From Candidatus Woesearchaeota archaeon (GTDB taxonomy: Archaea; Nanobdellota; Nanobdellia; Pacearchaeales; GW2011-AR1): a stretch of DNA of 25,222 bases. The notes under the pieces are model-generated. The model had not been told where the DNA came from. It was given only the letters and a program-made list of their open reading frames with translations, and searched no databases. Location: assembly GCA_964395155.1 (NCBI GenBank), contig CAYNAC010000001.1:1-25222 (forward strand). The letters are read 5' to 3'. How positions within the stretch are numbered: the first letter of the stretch is position 1; the number at the start of each line of letters is the position of its first letter. Shown here piece by piece: positions 6,604 through 21,948 of the stretch. The position numbers and the translations under genes are program-made.

Positions 6604-7550
6604 ATAGAAATGGAGTAGATTTTACTTTTAGTTGGATATTTGCAATTATGGCTGGAGCAGTAATAATTGTTTCTGCAATTTATATCTCTTCTCAGCTAAT
6701 AAATTCTGGAAAAAAACAATCTGACACTTTGGTTGCAGGAGAGCTTGCAAACTTGTTTAACCCTCTTGAGACTAATCTGGAAGATAATAAATATTCAGTA
6801 ATAGAATTTTCACAAGAGACCAGAGTTTATAATGAGTGTTCATTGGATGGTTTTTTTGGCATTCAAAAAATAAGCACATCTTCAAAATCTTCTAAAGGGG
6901 AATGGAGCGAACAAAGTATAAAAAAATCTGTTCAAAATAAATATTTGTTTTCTAGAAATAGAGAAGAAAGTAGTAATAAAAGACTTCATGTTTTAGTTAA
7001 TCCTATAGATTACCCTTTTAAAATTGGAGATGCTATAATGGTATATTCTGGAAATTATTGTTTTGTTAACCCTCCTTCTGATATTGAAGATTTGTTAAAT
7101 GACTTATCGATCGATGGAGAAAAAGACATAGGAATAAATCTTACAAGCAATGTTAATCAATGTCCTTTGAACTATACCAAAGTTTGTTTTAATAGAATAG
7201 GTTGTGATATAAATGTAGATACAAATTCAGAAAGTGTCACTAAATCATCTAAAACATCTTATTATGATGGAGATTCTTTAATGCTTGCAGCAATATTGTC
7301 AGATAATGAAATATATGAATGTCAAATAAAGAGATTAATGAAAAGAGCAAGAGAACTTGGAATAATTTACAATAAGAAATCTATTTTTATTGAAGGAAGT
7401 GGTTGTAGTAATAACTTGGCTAGCGATTTACAAAATTTTGTCGAATATACTAATCTAAATAATTCGAGAGACTTTGCCAGGTTAGTAGTTCCTCTTGCAA
7501 AGGATTTAGAAAGGAGGAATAGTGAACTCGCTTCGTGTAAGGTATTCTAA
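6600..7550 (+). CDS. Pilin-like/minor pilin protein, class III-type signal, Cys-rich C-terminal domain
   Basis: MNRNG|VDFTFSWIFAIMAGAVIIVSAIYI; multiple Cys; ATGA overlap with the phosphatase; GGAGA SD. Confidence 0.65.
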   Translation: MNRNGVDFTFSWIFAIMAGAVIIVSAIYISSQLINSGKKQSDTLVAGELANLFNPLETNLEDNKYSVIEFSQETRVYNECSLDGFFGIQKISTSSKSSKGEWSEQSIKKSVQNKYLFSRNREESSNKRLHVLVNPIDYPFKIGDAIMVYSGNYCFVNPPSDIEDLLNDLSIDGEKDIGINLTSNVNQCPLNYTKVCFNRIGCDINVDTNSESVTKSSKTSYYDGDSLMLAAILSDNEIYECQIKRLMKRARELGIIYNKKSIFIEGSGCSNNLASDLQNFVEYTNLNNSRDFARLVVPLAKDLERRNSELASCKVF

Positions 7551-8543: not shown

Positions 8544-8701
8544 ATAAGGACTTATTAATATTCTGAAAATAATTTGTAAGGTTAACAGATAGATGAATTT
8601 GACTGAAAAAAGGTTTATGCTAGAGATCTTAATATTTATTTAAAAAGGTAATGCGTTTGACCCTATTTTGTGTTTAGTTCAAAGCAGACCTAAAAGTAAG
8701 T

Positions 8702-8709
8702 TTTATAAA
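8702..8709 (+). promoter_or_regulatory. TATA box (TTTATAAA) for rps19e
   Basis: Lies 21 nt before ATG 8731, which supports that start rather than TTG 8668. Confidence 0.6.
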
Positions 8710-8730
8710 GCGTCTTTTTTAGTAGTCTCT

Positions 8731-9141
8731 ATGAATGCTGTTAAGTCAATTCAAGCTAGTAAATATAATCTTTTGTTAGCATCCGCTTTAAAAGAATATA
8801 AGGAATTTGAAGCTCCTGAATGGGTAATGTTTGTTAAAAGTGGGAATGGTAAACATAGACCTATTGAAAGCGAGGATTTTTGGCACAATAGGGCTGCAAG
8901 TATTTTGAGACAAATTTATTTGAGAGGAATAGTTGGAGTTCAAAGACTTAGAACTAGATATGGAAACAGAAAAAATAGAGGCAAACAACCTGCACGTTTT
9001 GTTAGGTCTGGCGGAAAAATAATAAGATTGATTCTGCAACAGGCCGAATCTGCTCAATTGCTAGTTAAGTCAGAGACAAATGAAAAAGGAAGAATGTTGA
9101 GTGAAAAAGGTAAGAAATTACTTGAAGGAGTTAAAGAGTAA
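8731..9141 (+). CDS. rps19e: 30S ribosomal protein S19e
   Basis: APEWVMFVKSG...RPIESEDFWHNRAASILRQIY...VGVQRLRTRYGNRKNRG...GGKIIRLILQQAE...GRMLSEKG. Confidence 0.95.
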   Translation: MNAVKSIQASKYNLLLASALKEYKEFEAPEWVMFVKSGNGKHRPIESEDFWHNRAASILRQIYLRGIVGVQRLRTRYGNRKNRGKQPARFVRSGGKIIRLILQQAESAQLLVKSETNEKGRMLSEKGKKLLEGVKE

Positions 9142-9296
9142 CATGACACAAACAAAGTTTGCTTATGATTCAAAACTAAATTGGCATGCCTACACATGCT
9201 ATACTGGAGAGTTTTGAACATGGAAAAAATTGATATTTTTAAATATTTAATTTCCACTAGCTCGTCTTCACTCGTAATAGGGAGAGGAAATTAAAT

Positions 9297-9497
9297 ATGA
9301 CTCAAAGTTATCATAAAAAAATCGTTTTAGGAGTGCACACAAGAAGAACTAAGTGGGCTCCAGTTTGGGCGGTTGTTAGAAGATTTGGGAAGGGTAAAAA
9401 AGTACATCCTTCTGCTATGACTAAGATTCGTAGAAATTGGAGAAGAACTAAATTGAAAATCAAACCTCGCAGGTCTGGTAAGAAACATTTGGGTTAA
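9297..9497 (+). CDS. rpl39e: 50S ribosomal protein L39e (extended variant)
   Basis: KK...WAPVWAVV...HP...RRNWRRTKLK signature; conserved position before L31e; GGAGAGG SD. Confidence 0.88.
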   Translation: MTQSYHKKIVLGVHTRRTKWAPVWAVVRRFGKGKKVHPSAMTKIRRNWRRTKLKIKPRRSGKKHLG

Positions 9498-9498
9498 A

Positions 9499-13706: not shown

Positions 13707-13982
13707 TTAAAAGTCCATTACTTTGAATTCTTTAAATCCTTGATGTTTTTCCTCTTTTTCTACTACGCTTCTGATCATTGTGTGTTGAGGGCCTGTTTTG
13801 CAAGCTAAAATCATATTGTTAACTTCATTAGTACTCCCTTCTATAAATATCTCTACCAGCCCGTCTTCTTTGTTTCTTATGAATCCTTTTATTCCCAAGT
13901 TGTCTGCGCTTTCTTTAATAAATCTGTTAAAAAAAACTTTTTGTATCGAACCTTGAATCGTGAGCCTTACGCTTTTTTTCAT
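13707..13982 (-). CDS. acyP: Acylphosphatase family protein (phosphate-binding loop divergent)
   Basis: 91 aa; G-x-I-Q-x-V-F-F loop, GFIRNKEDGLVEIFIEG and C-K-x-G-P motifs. Confidence 0.85.
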   Translation of the reverse strand: MKKSVRLTIQGSIQKVFFNRFIKESADNLGIKGFIRNKEDGLVEIFIEGSTNEVNNMILACKTGPQHTMIRSVVEKEEKHQGFKEFKVMDF

Positions 13983-15533: not shown

Positions 15534-16832
15534 TTAAACAGGCTTCATCGCACCCCATTTATCTAAAGCTTGTCTAAGTTCAATATTGTATTTTGCATGT
15601 TCCTGTAATGTTTCTCCCTCGTGAACTGCATCTATCGCTTGTCTTGCTGCCATTGCTCCTGCACGAGTTCCTTTTGGATGTCCATGAATTCCTCCTGAAA
15701 CAAGAATAACACATTCGTCTCCAAATAGTTTAAGCAAATCTGGGATTAGTCCGGGATGAACTCCTCCTGATGAAACAGGGAATGCTTGTTTTAACCCGTG
15801 CCAATCTTGTAAAAATCTTAAATTTTTTATTTCACTAACTTTTTTCTCTCTGAGAGTATCACTAACATTTTTTACTTCTTGTGCCGTTCCTACAAGTTTT
15901 CCTACTGCAGTTCCAGAATGTATTTGATCCACTCCTATCATCCTCATTAATTTTGCTAGCATGTACATTGACATTCCATGTTTTGGATTTTTGTCAAACA
16001 TTGCATGCATTGCTCTGTGCGCATGAATTGCCATACCATAATCTCCTAATGTTTTACGAAGAGTTTGAACTGAAGAATATCCTGTAACTACAACGTCTAT
16101 CATCGCATGTTTAAATCCATAATTGTGTAATAATTTGGCTCTTCTTTTCATTTCATCGGTTTCGGCAGTAATGTTAATGTATGCGTCCTTGGTATCTCCT
16201 GTTGCTTTTTCTGCTTTATCTCTAAACTTTGCAAGTAATTTTACTCTTTTATCAAAATTATTAAATGAAGTAGAAGTTAAATTTTCGTCGTCTTTTACAA
16301 AATCAAAACCTCCCATCCAAGTCTCATATCCGATTTCTGCGTGTTCAACATCTGAAAAACCTATCTTGGGCTTAGGAACTGCTCCGAGCATAGGCCTGTT
16401 GTAAACATTCATCATTTTTCTTATTCCATTAATTCCATGTCTTGGTCCTGAAAAACTTTTTAGATATTTTTTAGGAAATTTTATATCTAATAGTCTTAAA
16501 TTTTCAAGTGCTTTCATCCCAAAAATATTTCCGCCTATGCCACTTAATAATTGAGGACAATTTCCTTCTTCCCATAAATCATAAGGATATGAAACTTTCA
16601 AAATATTTCCTTCGCGATGATATGCATGAGCTTTTAACTTGTTCATTCGTGGCGGCATTTTAAACAAAGTTGTCCATGTTCCAGTAGAGCTTTCTGAAGC
16701 AATTCTTCCCATTGCTTCATTTACTGAAACTCCTTTAGATGGTTCAAAATAAAATAAAGCAATTAATTCATCTTGGGAGGGTTTGTAAGAGGAATCTACA
16801 AAATCTAAATACCACTCAACTTTTTTTTCCAT
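15534..16832 (-). CDS. rbcL: RuBisCO large subunit, archaeal form III (III-b-like)
   Basis: All active-site motifs present: ESSTGTW, GNIFGMK, PKPKIG, DFVKDDENL (carbamylated Lys), HAHRAMH, HSGT-VGKL, PVSSGG, GGIHGHP. The C-terminus KWGAMKPV resembles Thermococcales form III. Confidence 0.96.
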   Translation of the reverse strand: MEKKVEWYLDFVDSSYKPSQDELIALFYFEPSKGVSVNEAMGRIASESSTGTWTTLFKMPPRMNKLKAHAYHREGNILKVSYPYDLWEEGNCPQLLSGIGGNIFGMKALENLRLLDIKFPKKYLKSFSGPRHGINGIRKMMNVYNRPMLGAVPKPKIGFSDVEHAEIGYETWMGGFDFVKDDENLTSTSFNNFDKRVKLLAKFRDKAEKATGDTKDAYINITAETDEMKRRAKLLHNYGFKHAMIDVVVTGYSSVQTLRKTLGDYGMAIHAHRAMHAMFDKNPKHGMSMYMLAKLMRMIGVDQIHSGTAVGKLVGTAQEVKNVSDTLREKKVSEIKNLRFLQDWHGLKQAFPVSSGGVHPGLIPDLLKLFGDECVILVSGGIHGHPKGTRAGAMAARQAIDAVHEGETLQEHAKYNIELRQALDKWGAMKPV

Positions 16833-16893: not shown

Positions 16894-19800
16894 TTAGTTG
16901 TTTAAATCAATTGGAATGTATTGTCTATCAGCTACTTGGTTTGCGCGCCTTATTGCTATTTGATTTCTTATGGACTTTATGACTAAAAATATTCCTATAG
17001 ATAGAAGAATTACTATTCCTGTCCATGAAACTGTTCTTAAATTATTGTCTGATATTGCAAGTCCAGATATTCCAGCTGAAGATAATTTTATTTTTTGTTC
17101 ATATTTGCTACTTTCTGTTCCGTCTGTTGCCTCAATTAATAAAGTATAGTCTCCTACCGAATTTTTTGGTAGTTCAAATTCAAAAGTTTTTACCACTTTT
17201 TCTTTTGGAGACAAGTTAATATCTTTAACCTCATCTTCTAATATGGTGGTTTGTTTTGAACTTATCATTTTATAATCAAAAGAAATTATCTTATTCTTAT
17301 CTGCGAAATTTTCTAGTGAATATTCTACTCTTAGTTTTGTACCTATCCTTTCAGAATTTAGAATAATCATTTCGAAATCTCCAGAGATTACTGATAAATC
17401 ATATCTTTTTATTATGGATGTCTCTTTACATTTGACGCTTAGTTCTGTAAAGTAATCTCCATTATCTGCATTTATTGGAGTGTTTACGTTGAAAAAATAA
17501 GCTACTTCTTGCCCGGGGCTTAAAGATTCTATCTGACTCATTGAAAACCAAGAAGAAACACCTCCGTTTGCAGAGATTAGACATCCGTTTAAAAATTTGT
17601 TTCCTGTATTTTTTATAATCCATTCAATTGATTCACTCTTTCCCCTACCTATTTTTAATTTATCTAAATCTCCTCCTGTAATTTCAAATATATCTTTTGC
17701 TACAAAGCTACCTCCGCCACCACTTCCTGTTGATGTTCCTCCTGAACTTCCTCCACTGCTAGAACTTGCAGAAACTACAATCTTTAAGCTCGGAGCATTT
17801 TCTGATTCTGCACCTAGAGCATCCTCGAAACTCATAGATGTTGCCTTACAAACAATTTCAATTTTTCCATAATAAGTATTAATTGGAGGGCTGTCTATTG
17901 TTAGAGTCAAATTTTTTGTTTCATTTATTTCTAGGTTGAAATTATTTAGATTGAAACTTCCAAAACCAGTTGTATCGAAACCATCTATTGAAGGAATGCA
18001 GTTTGACAAAGTGAAATTTCCGGTGTTTTTAACTCCCCAAATAAATTCTTTTACTTCATCATTTTTCATAGAATGGACAACATTGCAAATTCCTCCAGAA
18101 CATAAATTCAAAGATGGGATATCTATTGCATCTACATCTCCGCTAGGAGGATCTATACCTATAGTTAAAGGTACTATATACTTCTTACCATCTAAATTTC
18201 TAGTAATTGTTATATTTCCTAAGTAAACAACTCCCTCTATAGTATTTAATGAAGTTTTTATTATGATTTGATTTTTAAATAAATTAGTGTCGTTATAAAC
18301 AGATTTGTTTAAAACCGAGCTATTACTGGAGAAAGTCAAGTTGAAGAACGTTGAATTTAAAGAATAATTAAATGTAAAATTATAATCTTCTAATGAGTTG
18401 TGATACATAGTTAGATTCCATATTAGAGTTTGGTTTTTTGGATCTGGAGTTATTATGTATTCGGAAGGAAAAAATGATAAATCTGCTAAAACTCTAAAAC
18501 TTCCATTTTGATTGGTTTGATTAATTCCATCTGAAGCTATTACACTCCAATTCCAATAACCATATTCATCGATAGTGTAGTTTGTAGAATTCCAAATGCT
18601 ATACCCTCCAAATGAATACTCACTACCTAATAAATTGTCGATAACTCTTGTTCCGTTTGGATTGATTAATGTGAAACTAACTTGAATTGAGTCGTTATCT
18701 GCGTCAGATACATTTGCTTTTATAAAGAAATTTTCTCCGAATAATGGAGTAGAATTTGTATTGTTTATAATTAACAAAACACTATTGATTATTGGAGGAG
18801 AATTACTTGAGTTAGATGTCAAGTTCAAAAATAAGTTTCTTGATAAGTTACTATAATTTTGATTTCCGATTATGTCGAAAGTGTAATTGTAGTATCCTAC
18901 TCCTAGAGTGATGTTTAATCCGTTTTGATTTGTTACATCGACTCCATTTCTGTAGATAGTTAGATTTCCTGCGTTTGTTGAAGCTGTTGCATTGACTTGT
19001 TGAGGATATTGTATTGTTAGATTATTTGTTAAGCCGTTCAAATAATAGTTAAGGTTAGGGATTTGTTTATTTATAGTGTAATATCTCGGAGAAGAGTTGT
19101 TGAAGTTATTACTAGTTCCATTGCCGTATGCCCACCAGTAGTATCTATAAGTTCCAACAGCTAGGTTTGAAATTGAGAAGTTAAATATATTTGAAGTGGA
19201 ATTGTGAATTGTGTAATTTGTCCCATTAAATTCTATTCCTGCAGTTCCATTTGTAGAAATTATGGTTGCATTAAACCTGTAAACTGCTCCTTGCGAGTAA
19301 TTTGTTCCGTTTAAAGGATTTTCTAAAAAGTTTGAGAATGAAGGATGTTCGTTATCTATGATTTGATAAATCAACGTAAAATTAGTATCGTTGTAAGCAT
19401 AGTTACTTGAATTATCGAATGCTATATAGTTCCAATAGAATGTTCCTGAATATGGGAGAACTAAAGATAGATTGCTCAAGTTTGTTAAACCTGAAACTAA
19501 AGAAAAATTAGACAAGACTAAGTTCCCGCTAGAATTCCACATGTGTAACGTTGTATTTTTTAGTTGAATATTATCTGTTAAATTGGCAAGAAAATAATTT
19601 GTATTATTTGTTGTAGTTGTCCCGTTAAATGGAAATATTAACTTAACTCTCGGCGGAAAGGTATCTGGTTCAGATATAACTTCACCATTAATTGTAACGT
19701 TGTCTATTCTGCAGTATTCTGAAACTGCTCCTGCAGTACATTCGAATCTTATTTTAAAATTAGGATTGTTTGATGCGGTTGAAGGTAGAGAAAATATTGT

Positions 19801-20331
19801 GAAATTATAAGATGCGTCATTGGCTGCAGAAGAACCTGTAAAATCTAAAACTGTCCAACCTGTGCCGTTGAACCACATCGATTGAAACTCATCCGCTGAA
19901 TCTAGACCTATTAATTTCTTATAATAACTAAAATTTATATTTTGATAACCTGATGTACTTATGTTTATCTCCATAATACTTGCTGGTTCTGATGTGCTTT
20001 GTGGTTGAGATTGTGCGTGGAAAATTTGTTCAAATGGATCTATATTAGTTACGATCCAATCATTAGCTCCGGAAGCACTTGTTAAATTCCAAGAAACTAA
20101 ACTTCCAGATTCAAATCCGTCTGAAAAAATAACTGACGCATTTACAGATTGAACTAAACTAATTATAAAAAAAATTGAGAAAAATAAACTTAATAGATTT
20201 TTTCCATTTAGTATTTCTTTCATAAATATTTCAATTCTCTTAGATAAAACTATTGCTCTTGCCTTGCAGTACTTCTTAAAATCATTATAAGTCTTAGCCT
20301 CTATCGTTAATGTTACCTTTTTTTTATCCAT
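16894..20331 (-). CDS. 1145-aa surface glycoprotein with N-terminal ribbon-helix-helix domain, signal peptide, jelly-roll-like domain, Ig-like stalk and C-terminal TM anchor
   Basis: aa1-41 RHH pattern (KKVTLTI strand; EAKTYNDFKKYCKAR helix; LSKRIEIFMKEIL helix); aa42-65 signal peptide ending VNA; dense N-x-S/T sequons; Ser/Gly linker; TM VSWTGIVILLSIGIFLVI. Confidence 0.8.
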   Translation of the reverse strand: MDKKKVTLTIEAKTYNDFKKYCKARAIVLSKRIEIFMKEILNGKNLLSLFFSIFFIISLVQSVNASVIFSDGFESGSLVSWNLTSASGANDWIVTNIDPFEQIFHAQSQPQSTSEPASIMEINISTSGYQNINFSYYKKLIGLDSADEFQSMWFNGTGWTVLDFTGSSAANDASYNFTIFSLPSTASNNPNFKIRFECTAGAVSEYCRIDNVTINGEVISEPDTFPPRVKLIFPFNGTTTTNNTNYFLANLTDNIQLKNTTLHMWNSSGNLVLSNFSLVSGLTNLSNLSLVLPYSGTFYWNYIAFDNSSNYAYNDTNFTLIYQIIDNEHPSFSNFLENPLNGTNYSQGAVYRFNATIISTNGTAGIEFNGTNYTIHNSTSNIFNFSISNLAVGTYRYYWWAYGNGTSNNFNNSSPRYYTINKQIPNLNYYLNGLTNNLTIQYPQQVNATASTNAGNLTIYRNGVDVTNQNGLNITLGVGYYNYTFDIIGNQNYSNLSRNLFLNLTSNSSNSPPIINSVLLIINNTNSTPLFGENFFIKANVSDADNDSIQVSFTLINPNGTRVIDNLLGSEYSFGGYSIWNSTNYTIDEYGYWNWSVIASDGINQTNQNGSFRVLADLSFFPSEYIITPDPKNQTLIWNLTMYHNSLEDYNFTFNYSLNSTFFNLTFSSNSSVLNKSVYNDTNLFKNQIIIKTSLNTIEGVVYLGNITITRNLDGKKYIVPLTIGIDPPSGDVDAIDIPSLNLCSGGICNVVHSMKNDEVKEFIWGVKNTGNFTLSNCIPSIDGFDTTGFGSFNLNNFNLEINETKNLTLTIDSPPINTYYGKIEIVCKATSMSFEDALGAESENAPSLKIVVSASSSSGGSSGGTSTGSGGGGSFVAKDIFEITGGDLDKLKIGRGKSESIEWIIKNTGNKFLNGCLISANGGVSSWFSMSQIESLSPGQEVAYFFNVNTPINADNGDYFTELSVKCKETSIIKRYDLSVISGDFEMIILNSERIGTKLRVEYSLENFADKNKIISFDYKMISSKQTTILEDEVKDINLSPKEKVVKTFEFELPKNSVGDYTLLIEATDGTESSKYEQKIKLSSAGISGLAISDNNLRTVSWTGIVILLSIGIFLVIKSIRNQIAIRRANQVADRQYIPIDLNN

Positions 20332-20566
20332 TCAATCAATAGATTTTTATTTATTATAAAGCTTTCTTTTTATGTAAAAAGCTGTATAAATAAATAAAAA
20401 GCTGTATTTAAGAATGAAAGATTAAATAATTTGAGAACAAAACAATAATCATTGACCTGTCAAATTAACGTTGTCTATTCTGCAGTATTCTGAAACTGCT
20501 CCTGCAGTACATTCGAATCTTATTTTAAAATTAGGATTGTTTGATGCAGTTGAAGGTAGAGAAAAT
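19695..20566 (-). repeat. 101-bp direct repeat, 1 mismatch (19695-19795 vs 20466-20566), shared by two adjacent genes
   Basis: Encodes FSLPSTASNNPNFKIRFECTAGAVSEYCRIDNV in both genes; offset 771 bp; the single difference (19777 vs 20548) is synonymous. Confidence 0.95.
20353..20407 (-). promoter_or_regulatory. Promoter of the RHH-surface gene: TATA (20353-20360) plus tandem 13-bp direct repeats TAAAAAGCTGTAT (20375-20387, 20395-20407); candidate RHH operator
   Basis: The repeats are exact with a 20-bp period; a third partial copy (AAAGCT, 20358-20363) is in the same phase and overlaps TATA/BRE; TATA is 21 nt from ATG 20331. Confidence 0.65.
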
Positions 20567-21948
20567 TGTTTGTACTGATAACTTACATCATTGGCTGAAC
20601 TAGATCCAGTTTGTTCAACTATGTTCCAACTAGTTCCGTCAAACCATTTAACTTTAAATTCATCTGCTGAATCTAGACCTATTAACTTCCTATAATAACT
20701 AAATAAGACAGTATTAAATCCAGTTGTACTTATTGTCTTCTCGAGTATGCTTGCTGGTTCTGATGTTGAACGAGGCTGTGATTGAGCATGTTTTGAACCT
20801 TGGAACGGATCTGTAGCAGAGTTTTCCCAATTTAATCCTCCGGAAACGGAAGAAGTAGTCCAACTATTTAGATTACCAGATTCAAAATTATCGTAAAATA
20901 TTTGTTGCGGACCGCTTGGATTAGTTTCATTATCATCCAGATAATTAGTACAACCCAGATCATTCTGATCTATTAAGTTATCTCCGTCGTTATCTATTCC
21001 ATCACTACATTGAGTAAGACCATCATTAATTTCTGAATTGTCTTCACTGGATGAGCAACCGAAATCGTTTGGAAAGTCTATTGAATTATCTCCGTCGTTA
21101 TCTATTCCATCGCTACATTGAGTAATACTATATCCTGGAGGCATAGATATTGGTCTTTTCATGATCCAGTCTACTGCAGTCCATAAAAATGGCCAATCAC
21201 TTCCATCAGGTCCGTCACTTAATTCTTCGGCGAAATTATGAGGTCCGTCTCTTGAACTATCTTCTTCAATTTCTGGATGAGGTCCAACAAGTAAAATCCT
21301 TCCTTGTCCGTAATTAAAACCAATTATCCCTGGTTTTCCATTTACATGAGAATTTGAAGGAACTATCCAAGAAGCAAATGTTTGCATTTCTTGTCCTGAG
21401 TGTGGAACAAAATATGGTTCTCCATAATATAAAACATCTTTCTGTAATGGACTATAAATGTTTGCAGGATGATCTTTGTTAATGTCCATCGTAGTCATTA
21501 CGTAGTTTGGCCAAGGAGCAATTTCAGGAATTGGACCTATACAATCTCCGTTAAACATATCTGAAGGATAGTCGTAACTTCTTCCCTCCCAGATAGTTAT
21601 GTCGCAAGCATAAAATGCTCCAGCACTCATTCCAATATAATGTCCTCCTGAACTAATTAAGTCTCTAATATTTTGATCCCCGCTAGGTTTTATATCTCTA
21701 TTATAATCTCCTGCCCAACCTCCAGGCATAAATATTCCTTTATAATTTAATCTTAAATCCTCTGTGTTTATAATATTTTTATCTACCTCTCTCCAAGTTA
21801 GCCCTTTCCAGTCTAAGAAATTTTCAAAAGCAACAATACTAGGATTCCAAGTTCCACTACCTGTATAAATTGCAAAATCATATTGTTGGGCATAAACTCC
21901 TCCAAAAAGAATTACTGAAAAAAGTAACAATATAAAAAATCTTTTCAT
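20449..21948 (-). CDS. Secreted BPL_N-like class I glutamine-amidotransferase-fold protein, two Ca-binding Cys/Asp repeats, C-terminal jelly-roll-like domain
   Basis: Signal peptide MKRFFILLLFSVILFGGVYA; AIYTGSG, FMPGG, GGHYIGMSAGAFYA and GPHPE motifs; CSDGIDNDGD x2. Confidence 0.75.
   Translation of the reverse strand: MKRFFILLLFSVILFGGVYAQQYDFAIYTGSGTWNPSIVAFENFLDWKGLTWREVDKNIINTEDLRLNYKGIFMPGGWAGDYNRDIKPSGDQNIRDLISSGGHYIGMSAGAFYACDITIWEGRSYDYPSDMFNGDCIGPIPEIAPWPNYVMTTMDINKDHPANIYSPLQKDVLYYGEPYFVPHSGQEMQTFASWIVPSNSHVNGKPGIIGFNYGQGRILLVGPHPEIEEDSSRDGPHNFAEELSDGPDGSDWPFLWTAVDWIMKRPISMPPGYSITQCSDGIDNDGDNSIDFPNDFGCSSSEDNSEINDGLTQCSDGIDNDGDNLIDQNDLGCTNYLDDNETNPSGPQQIFYDNFESGNLNSWTTSSVSGGLNWENSATDPFQGSKHAQSQPRSTSEPASILEKTISTTGFNTVLFSYYRKLIGLDSADEFKVKWFDGTSWNIVEQTGSSSANDVSYQYKQFSLPSTASNNPNFKIRFECTAGAVSEYCRIDNVNLTGQ
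20978..21125 (-). repeat. 40-bp direct repeat, 1 mismatch (20978-21017 vs 21086-21125), encoding TQCSDGIDNDGDN
   Basis: Offset 108 bp (36 aa). Confidence 0.9.

Follow-up and report, generated by a model that had tools for sequence, protein, structure and literature searches.

Background

The genes of the ribbon-helix-helix (RHH) repressors CopG and SvtR each stand first in their transcript, and both proteins control their own expression by way of repeats in the promoter. PutA has an N-terminal RHH domain on a protein of more than 1000 residues and represses its own operon, and this repressor activity is switched by membrane association. The bacterial regulators ToxR, CadC, and TcpP act from the membrane and consist of an N-terminal cytoplasmic DNA-binding domain of the OmpR-type winged-helix class, a linker, one membrane segment, and a small extracytoplasmic sensor domain, and they are not cut by signal peptidase. 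In this work we analyzed a stretch of 25,222 nt from Candidatus Woesearchaeota archaeon (GenBank assembly GCA_964395155.1, contig CAYNAC010000001.1, positions 1 to 25,222), which we refer to as the window. It contains a gene in which an RHH-like domain is fused in frame in front of the signal peptide of a giant surface protein and which has operator-like repeats at its own promoter.

The RHH-like domain resembles CopG/RepB-RCR_reg, SvtR, and E73 in its length of about 45 residues and in the same pattern of strand, helix A, and helix B; CopG is exactly 45 amino acids (aa) long and its ...GLSKS... stands where the window protein has ...VLSKR.... However, CopG, SvtR, and E73 are free and cytoplasmic whereas the window domain stands covalently before a signal peptide and about 1080 further residues, and the sequence matches are weak. 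The order of an N-terminal cytoplasmic DNA-binding domain, one membrane segment, and an extracytoplasmic domain, with regulation from the membrane, is what the window protein would share with ToxR, CadC, and TcpP, but it differs from them in having an RHH-like domain, an AxA-like site that suggests cleavage, and a giant, presumably glycosylated, adhesin-like part. PutA differs in that it is a peripheral enzyme that binds the membrane reversibly, lacks a signal peptide, and does not undergo export. Controller (C) proteins of restriction-modification systems, and other small autoregulators encoded by leader genes, are similar in being small first-encoded DNA-binding proteins that overlap the next gene and autoregulate through promoter repeats, but C proteins belong to the helix-turn-helix class, and each is a polypeptide separate from the product that it controls. 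Lastly, the long signal peptides of retroviral Env and Rem proteins, namely, p14 of mouse mammary tumor virus (MMTV) and the signal peptide of HERV-K(HML-2), an endogenous retrovirus of humans, carry an N-terminal extension that has a nucleic acid-related regulatory function of its own and is released after targeting (PMC2649029). These differ from the window protein in being eukaryotic or viral and in that their extension does not fold into a DNA-binding domain that targets its own promoter, and they are unrelated to it in evolution. In the full-text literature that we searched, the coverage of which is incomplete, we found no description of an RHH or of any other DNA-binding domain before a Sec signal peptide, nor of an RHH gene followed by a surface-protein gene as a module in DPANN archaea. 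The parts are known and the arrangement is apparently undescribed.

Results and Discussion

An RHH-like domain at the N-terminus of a giant surface protein

The fused open reading frame (ORF) lies at 16894-20331 on the minus strand and reads directly as 1145 aa comprising an RHH-like domain, a signal peptide, an exported region, a C-terminal transmembrane (TM) anchor, and a basic tail. A preliminary description of this DNA, made from the letters alone, had placed the RHH, the signal peptide, an exported stalk, and the TM segment in this one ORF, and all of them were found where it had put them. The protein starts with MDKKKVTLTIEAKTYNDFKKYCKARAIVLSKRIEIFMKEILNGKN and continues in frame, without a stop codon, into LLSLFFSIFFIISLVQSVNA and then directly into SVIFSDGFESG. 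The exported part is about 1040 residues long, rich in N-x-S/T sequons and then formed by a Gly/Ser linker, and it ends at the TM anchor WTGIVILLSIGIFLVI (16975-17022, minus strand, aa 1104-1119), after which comes the basic tail (16897-16974), which is predicted to be cytoplasmic.

The RHH-like domain (20197-20331, minus strand, aa 1-45) has a strand KVTLTIE, helix A AKTYNDFKKYCKA, a turn, and helix B LSKRIEIFMKEILNG. Within about 45 aa it shows the sequence signature of the RHH type, that is, a basic N-terminus, an alternating-hydrophobic strand, and two helices with a Ser/Thr N-cap at the turn. An exhaustive phmmer search with aa 1-45 against 1.84 billion representatives (E <= 0.001) gave 85 homologue clusters. 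All 62 sampled members matched the Pfam family DUF6364, 41 of the 62 matched RepB-RCR_reg, and CcdA and RHH_3 were matched by two each; we take DUF6364 and RepB-RCR_reg to be members of the RHH clan. No papers on DUF6364 were found in the literature searched. The window domain itself scores 22.0-22.7 bits against PF19891 (DUF6364), with E-values of 1.4e-4 to 2.3e-4, which is below the gathering threshold of 27.3; by this score it is a divergent relative of PF19891 rather than a scored member, and some of its relatives carry a precomputed PF19891 match. When the family profile was compared with the sequences of the PDB, SvtR (2kel) ranked first and E73 (4aai) ranked third, both in the right register and with weak E-values of 0.28-0.43. 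The alignment with CopG, whose sequence was verified against 1b01 and 2cpg, was also in register yet weak (hhalign probability 16%). Searches of the PDB by phmmer with the single domain, of NCBIfam, and of a word-indexed protein collection with aa 1-83 gave no match, and the domain did not match any winged-helix family.

Several of these results weigh against the assignment. Each single Pfam or PDB match is sub-threshold or non-significant. The AlphaFold monomer, built with a 62-sequence alignment, has a coil at 1-11 and a single unbroken helix at 12-43 (predicted local distance difference test score, pLDDT, 81.6; predicted TM-score, pTM, 0.36), and the helix-turn-helix hairpin is absent from it; the unbroken helix may be due to an obligate dimer being modeled as a monomer. 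A natural single chain with two RHH repeats, modeled without an alignment, was of low confidence (pLDDT 53), and Foldseek found nothing significant, with E-values of 8 or more. Thus, of the earlier proposal that aa 1-45 have an RHH fold, the weak in-register profile matches to SvtR and E73 speak in its favor whereas the monomer model and the structure search do not. Taking all of this together, we regard it as very likely that the domain is an RHH domain.

The family consensus is xxKKKVTLSIDSKxYxxFQKYCEENAIMLSKKIELFMK, with K5, V6, T7, L8, Y15, C22, A26, L29, S30, and E34 invariant. Every one of these residues is kept in the window protein, and the fused proteins in general retain all of them. 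The identity in the RHH part (about 49-66%) is comparable to that in the rest of the fused proteins (38-56%). That the RHH-like domain in the fused forms is under purifying selection appears well supported by these comparisons. Three other members, P0002 (108 aa), P0003 (103 aa), and P0023 (88 aa), contain two family RHH repeats joined by a basic linker and are possible covalent pseudo-dimers (P and L numbers denote homologous proteins and loci of our comparison).

The fusion is found in many relatives

Fusions of an RHH to a signal peptide like that in the window were sought in DPANN archaea and they were found repeatedly. Among the 85 homologue clusters (<=50% identity), 16 are fused, with the RHH at or near residue 1, a hydrophobic segment 3-11 residues later, and an AxA-like site. 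The fused homologues P0011, P0028, P0032, P0048, P0062, and P0083 are 1007-1465 aa long, and the C-terminal TM anchor is kept in P0048, P0083, P0028, P0011, and P0032. Loci in GTDB species were found by way of the motif AIMLSKKI with a narrower alignment, and the set is biased to the AIMLSKKI subfamily; in it, seven of 39 DPANN loci are fused, five of them being complete ORFs of 1287-1574 aa; in L006 and L012 the contig ends before the fused ORF does, at >=545 and >=1710 aa, respectively. P0048, P0083, and P0011 are each present on three contigs from different samples. P0083 aligns with the window protein at 49% identity over residues 1-494 and at 40% over 384-1137 with the same domain order, and P0048 aligns at 56% over 510-1145. 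Because P0083 and P0048 align at 40-56%, the reading frame must have been kept over a long divergence. That the locus unites two genes which otherwise stand side by side in Nanoarchaeota-type DPANN archaea, and that this fusion is genuine and has been maintained in evolution, is well supported.

A third architecture, with an extra domain before the RHH, was seen in L011 (from about 5001 onward), L018 (1257-1691), L032 (2594-3025), and L043 (2740-3144). The extra domain is about 55-95 aa long with the pattern ...CPDFI...V.VELET.SNF..H.H...DEIIC..., and our impression, and only that, is that it may be nuclease-like. In L011 the frame stays open past the extra domain and the RHH through a signal peptide and on into a giant surface protein, so that the whole chain has 1453 aa.

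Fused and split forms of a two-gene module

Most members of the RHH family are free proteins of 43-80 aa. The family gave 738 matches in a collection of 5.8 billion proteins, where the database name of the protein, if there is one, is 'hypothetical protein'. We examined 29 free RHH genes that have a downstream ORF; these encode 44-144 aa. In 21 of the 29 loci the next gene overlaps or abuts the RHH stop codon, often by a 4-nt ATGA overlap, and in 24 of the 29 the next protein has an N-terminal signal peptide, a class III (pilin-like) signal, or a TM segment, compared to 61 of 145 flanking ORFs in the background (Fisher, 7e-5). Several of the proteins downstream of free RHH genes are giant (1000-1660 aa). 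Toxin families gave no match, and with surface, secreted, or membrane proteins as the downstream partner in these 24 of 29 split loci, the partner genes are not those expected if the domain were the RHH antitoxin of a toxin-antitoxin pair.

The same exported domains are found in both arrangements. The IF.DGFESG domain is fused in the window protein, P0011, P0015, P0083, L007, L009, L012, and L029, and a divergent form of it (YNGFETDEQGW) is split from the RHH in L043. A laminin-G-type domain (...DF..GTY...) is fused in P0008, P0048, L006, and L008 and split in L023, L026, and L032. A third exported class (DDFECGG...) is fused in P0012, P0027, and P0045. With the same kinds of exported N-terminal domain encoded after fused as well as separate RHH domains, we read the fusion as a merger, or fission, that has recurred in a conserved two-gene unit. 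Judged from this comparison of loci, the fusion is one state of a widespread module of a regulator followed by a surface-protein gene, in which the RHH is normally a separate leader gene whose translation is coupled to that of the surface-protein gene, and it is not a one-off.

The association with surface-protein genes is not exclusive because a few RHH loci precede cytoplasmic proteins. In L053 (269-1716) two N6/N4 DNA methyltransferase genes follow the gene of the free P0022, which shares 4 nt with the first of them; P0022 is a controller-protein-like use of the RHH family outside surface-protein operons.

The signal peptide

The core of the Sec-type signal peptide (20137-20196, minus strand, aa 46-65) is made up of the h-region LLSLFFSIFFIISLV and the c-region QSVNA, with cleavage predicted before S66. 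The mean Kyte-Doolittle hydropathy is 2.78 over 15 residues of this segment. The Lys-rich end of helix B (NGKN, including K44) doubles as the n-region, and so the sequence has the class I features of a positive n-region, an h-region, and small residues at -1 and -3 (V-N-A before S). What is unusual is that the h-region begins at residue 46, beyond the usual first 30 or so residues, and behind a conserved domain. A hydrophobic segment and an AxA-like site right before the conserved IF.DGFESG domain are also present in P0011, P0015, P0028, P0032, P0083, L007, L009, L012, and L029, and the pattern of a signal peptide directly before a conserved exported domain was found in at least ten homologues. 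The N-terminal 65 aa fit the architecture of a long bioactive signal peptide (NtraC type, >40 aa), and their N-terminal module is conserved elsewhere as a free protein.

The hydrophobic segment could instead be an uncleaved signal anchor. The protein would then act as a membrane-bound one-component regulator of the ToxR kind whose two ends both face the cytoplasm, and its huge external part would sense contact with a host or a surface and modulate the RHH. The layout of a cytoplasmic DNA-binding domain, a TM segment, a large external domain, and a second TM segment agrees with this, as does the presumed role of DPANN surface proteins in mediating host contact. However, the small residues at -1 and -3 before the conserved exported domain, which are a hallmark of a cleaved signal peptide, are kept across the homologues, the same exported proteins bear ordinary short signal peptides when they are encoded in split operons, and the domain-family searches detected no sensor-type domain in the fused protein. 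We therefore hold a signal anchor to be very unlikely.

The promoter and its operator-like repeats

A BRE-like (B recognition element) sequence, AGAAAGC, and a TATA box, TTTATAA, lie at 20354-20367 on the minus strand, the TATA box itself at 20354-20360 and 22 nt before the RHH ATG. The preliminary description had given 21 nt for this spacing and had likened it to eight other promoters of the window; by our count it is 22 nt, and at about eight other genes of the window the TATA box is 20-23 nt before the ATG, while genes internal to operons carry GGAG(G) instead. The spacing is 22-24 nt at seven homologous fused genes, and free homologues are alike in this. A leaderless mRNA fits with a TATA box 22 nt before the RHH ATG, as at other first genes of the window. 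The geometry of the promoter points to the RHH Met as the translation start, as had been suggested.

Upstream of the gene, in an intergenic region of 117 nt, there are two exact copies of the 13-mer ATACAGCTTTTTA on the minus strand, a distal one at 20395-20407 and a middle one at 20375-20387, which are 20 bp apart. A degenerate proximal copy, AGAAAGCTTTATA (20355-20367, minus strand), matches at 10 of 13 positions, is in the same 20-bp phase, and overlaps the BRE and TATA box; it contains the palindrome AAAGCTTT. Two exact repeats and a partial third with a 20-bp period abutting the BRE and TATA box were what had been reported, and our examination confirmed it. The 13-mer occurs exactly nowhere else in the window. 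When the 117-nt region was shuffled 5000 times with its dinucleotide composition preserved, exact direct repeats of such length (>=13 nt) turned up in 10 of the shuffled sequences. A match of >=10/13 to the repeat is found in just 0.04% of the 13-mers of the window, and so a third copy in phase is unlikely to be there by chance. It is, however, weaker evidence than the two exact copies and counts against reading too much into it, because it sits on what is BRE/TATA consensus sequence anyway. A scan of the window for sigma-70 promoters and terminators gave results at chance level and is irrelevant to an archaeon.

Conserved repeats were then sought upstream of related genes, and the family was found to have operator-like units that covary with a residue of the RHH strand. 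In the Ser9 subfamily (strand KVTLSID) a unit of about 10 bp, TATACTTCTA or TATATTTCTA, forms arrays of direct or inverted copies that immediately precede the TATA box of the promoters, and AGAAGTAT often comes directly after the TATA box. L020 has a perfect 20-bp palindrome, TATACTTCTATAGAAGTATA, and in L009, which is fused, a stretch of 23 nt is directly repeated, the period being 20 bp as in the window. The Ser9-type unit TATACTTC, scored as T[AG]TA[CT]TTC[TC] in the 130 nt upstream of RHH genes, has a density of 10.3/kb there and of 0.18/kb elsewhere in the same loci. Of the 39 RHH promoters, 26 contain units of the TATACTTC type, compared to zero of 49 control promoters, which are the other promoters with a TATA box in these loci (Fisher, 5.6e-13). 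These P-values are optimistic because the motif was defined after inspecting the same promoters, and this has to be set against them.

The window RHH has Thr9, and the core of its repeat is ATACAGC. Three relatives with Asn9, in L046, L053, and L055, share the core ATACAGY: in L046, the locus of the fused P0048, an inverted repeat of 22 nt that contains TATACAGCAAT...ATTGCTGTATA immediately precedes the TATA box, and for the free P0022 (L053) and P0035 (L055) the units ATACAGT, ATACAGC, and GCTGTAT lie after the TATA box and before the start codon. In the four Asn9/Thr9 promoters ATACAGY occurs nine times and ATAYTTC zero times, whereas in the 39 Ser9 promoters ATACAGY occurs once and ATAYTTC 61 times; the background of ATACAGY is 0.3/kb. 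That the core covaries with strand residue 9, which would face the DNA, is the strongest available argument that the repeats are the RHH's own operators and that the fused RHH is still a DNA-binding protein. The promoter repeats are thus credible operators for the RHH family.

It could be argued that the fused RHH is no longer regulatory and that it is either a long n-region, delaying targeting or dimerizing the precursor, or has no role, while a free paralogue binds the repeats in trans. Several RHH loci per genome are possible, as there are two (L022 and L028) in the metagenome-assembled genome (MAG) YT3_932, there is practically no linker from helix B to the h-region, and cross-regulation is plausible because operators are common to paralogous operons. 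On the other hand, all family-invariant residues, including those of the strand, are kept in fused proteins that have diverged to 40-50% identity, the repeat type of the window agrees with its own unusual strand residue Thr9, and a second RHH was not found in the 25-kb window, which leaves the rest of the genome unseen. One ORF of 91 aa in the window (13707-13982), which starts with MKKSVRLTIQ and looked like a second RHH, was rejected because it is an acylphosphatase. Loss of the regulatory role appears unlikely to us.

The junction and the start codon

At the junction of the RHH and the signal peptide there is a run of six A residues (A6) at 20198-20203 on the minus strand, which had been suspected as a frameshift site. 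If the true sequence were A7, the locus would be a free RHH gene and a separate MEKNLLSL... gene, and the fusion would be a sequencing or assembly error. One added A does give a textbook signal peptide, MEKNLLSLFF..., and split pairs of an RHH and a surface-protein gene are commoner than fused ones among the relatives. However, an independent contig from another sample, L045 (912 nt, ENA ERZ27258568), has the identical A6 junction CTAAATGGAAAAAATCTATT and promoter with several single-nucleotide polymorphisms elsewhere. L045 is a collapse of a paralogous-domain repeat, and the junction lies outside the collapsed part. The repeat is formed by the C-terminal domain of the 499-aa secreted protein with a BPL_N domain that is encoded by the upstream neighbor gene (20449-21948, minus strand), which is paralogous to the first exported domain of the fused protein; the two copies (19695-19994 and 20466-20765) are 300 nt long and 80% identical with near-identical stretches within, and it is because of this repeat that the contig is collapsed. 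The collapse looks circular, and the gene appears there as a 217-aa chimera, P0001.

Other evidence is also against a frameshift. There are many in-frame homologous fusions with unrelated junction sequences; the junction DNA varies among the fused loci, and one of them, L006, has no A-run. With A7 the RHH would acquire a mostly hydrophobic tail of 14 residues, KSIKFIFLNFFYN, and an overlap of about 50 nt with the next gene, unlike the free family members, which have short hydrophilic Lys/Glu-rich tails and overlaps of about 4 nt. The out-of-frame ATG at 20207 was considered as a vestigial start and this was rejected; it is a by-product of the conserved Asn-Gly codons AAT-GGA that end helix B, which are seen in several relatives, and L009 has the same AAATGGAAA. 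GTDB genomes gave no match to a DNA pattern spanning the junction, either exact or with gaps. The artefact explanation of the fusion is essentially excluded by these comparisons, and we would be most surprised if the A-run were miscalled. Two family members, P0056 (59 aa) and P0020 (72 aa), end in odd short tails (e.g., ...KNKKVYVFHWDVFAFGERGDDSF) that resemble frameshifted signal peptides; they may be genuine broken fusions, which could show the transition from fused to split, or sequencing errors.

Even with the ORF fused, the products could be separate if the surface protein were made mainly from the in-frame Met37 at 20223 (MKEILNGKNLLSL...) or if free RHH were made by slippage on A_AAA_AAT, with the chimera of RHH and precursor as a minor product in both cases. 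A start at Met37 yields a normal-looking signal peptide, GGA AAA AAT holds a canonical slippery heptamer and the -1 frame stops after 14 codons, and the DNA is A-rich at most fused junctions. But Met37 is a conserved core residue in free RHH proteins too, it is replaced by Ile in P0032, P0062, L007, and L009, and P0032 and P0062 do not have any Met from residue 28 to the h-region. There is no Shine-Dalgarno-like motif upstream of Met37, whereas the internal genes of the window have GGAG(G), and the position of the promoter suits the first ATG. An internal TATA box before Met37 was considered and rejected, as there is just a poor TTTTATC that is encoded by conserved residues. As for slippage, L006 is without an A-run, and with a GC content of 31% one expects stop codons to turn up early in the other frames by chance. 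From the comparison of the homologue junctions, neither a conserved slippery site nor a conserved internal Met could be accepted as a general feature of the fused genes. Separate products are, in our opinion, quite unlikely.

Genomic context

The window has a GC content of 31%. Directly downstream of the surface-protein gene is a gene for the large subunit of RuBisCO (15534-16832, minus strand) with both Pfam domains (E 1e-83 and 7e-39); it is presumably of form III, the type that we take to be common in DPANN nucleotide salvage. Other genes of the window encode a class II aminoacyl-tRNA synthetase (Asp/Lys/Asn type), ribosomal protein L31e, and several more secreted proteins. RNA families and tRNAs were not found in the window, and in a stretch of about 950 nt (8544-9498) there is just a doubtful TTG-initiated ORF (8668-9141) and no Rfam or tRNA match. 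The upstream neighbor of the fused gene is conserved at homologous loci: a gene with a BPL_N domain is upstream in L048 and L049 as well, and the upstream proteins in L007 and L012 have the same C-terminal ...RVDNV... ending as the window neighbor. In L048, where P0083 is encoded, a MazE/PemK toxin-antitoxin pair and a gene for a HicB-like antitoxin (1730-2327 and 7240-7494) flank the fused gene; in its behavior the region resembles a variable island that surrounds two conserved genes.

The relatives of the surface protein are found in MAGs of Nanoarchaeota, Pacearchaeota, and Woesearchaeota, and the window accordingly comes from a DPANN archaeon. Exact-product look-ups of the 1145-aa protein, of the 1109-aa protein that would start at Met37, and of the 499-aa neighbor gave no record, and a search for related loci with the whole protein returned only relatives of the middle domains and was uninformative for the N-terminus.

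A proposed mechanism for the fused gene

The explanation that we favor, and consider reasonably probable, is a maintained gene fusion whose RHH-bearing presequence is left as a stub that represses its own promoter through the repeats. According to this proposal, translation would start at the RHH Met, and the RHH would emerge first, stay in the cytoplasm owing to its Lys-rich, positive-inside character, and dimerize. The h-region would target the chain to Sec, and signal peptidase would cut after VNA65, leaving a stub of about 65 residues of RHH and signal peptide that is anchored with its N-terminus inside and is either used in that form or freed or degraded by signal-peptide proteases. Archaea possess SPase I, SppA, and presenilin/SPP-type proteases (PMC4343526). 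The RHH dimers would bind the three repeats cooperatively on one face of the DNA, the last of them over the BRE and TATA box, and would thereby block TBP and TFB and repress the gene. Each precursor would contribute one repressor subunit, a ratio that split operons would reach only approximately by translational coupling, and such one-to-one counting would follow logically from the architecture. In cells that are a few hundred nanometers across, a tether to the membrane need not bar access to the DNA, and this would explain the ready interconversion of fused and split forms.

Some points have to be set against this proposal. DNA binding, the start codon, the cleavage, and the fate of the stub are all steps that we infer from sequence. 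There is hardly any linker between helix B and the membrane segment, which could hinder the binding of DNA by a tethered dimer, and what really binds the repeats could be a free paralogue encoded in another part of the genome. Going one step further, the cleaved 65-residue presequence could be a transcription factor borne on a signal peptide, acting as a membrane-anchored or protease-released repressor of its own promoter so that feedback is stoichiometric and coupled to export; we put this forward only tentatively. Whether the arrangement represents a new mechanism is likewise doubtful, although possible.

DPANN archaea depend on contact with host cells, and their huge surface proteins are presumed to be the contact organs; to our knowledge, almost nothing is known about how these surface proteins are regulated. 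What the comparisons bring to this is a widespread module made up of a 45-residue RHH leader gene, an operator code with a specificity switch at one strand residue, and a coupled surface-protein gene. In roughly a fifth of the cases the two genes are fused, and this puts a DNA-binding domain before a Sec signal peptide. If the proposal is true, the operator family common to many paralogous surface-protein operons could also allow the stubs to repress one another's genes and determine the set of surface proteins shown by a DPANN cell. Should the fused form function in the way that we propose, a prokaryotic signal peptide would have a further role as a transcription factor, and gene expression would be tied to protein export in a very simple way.

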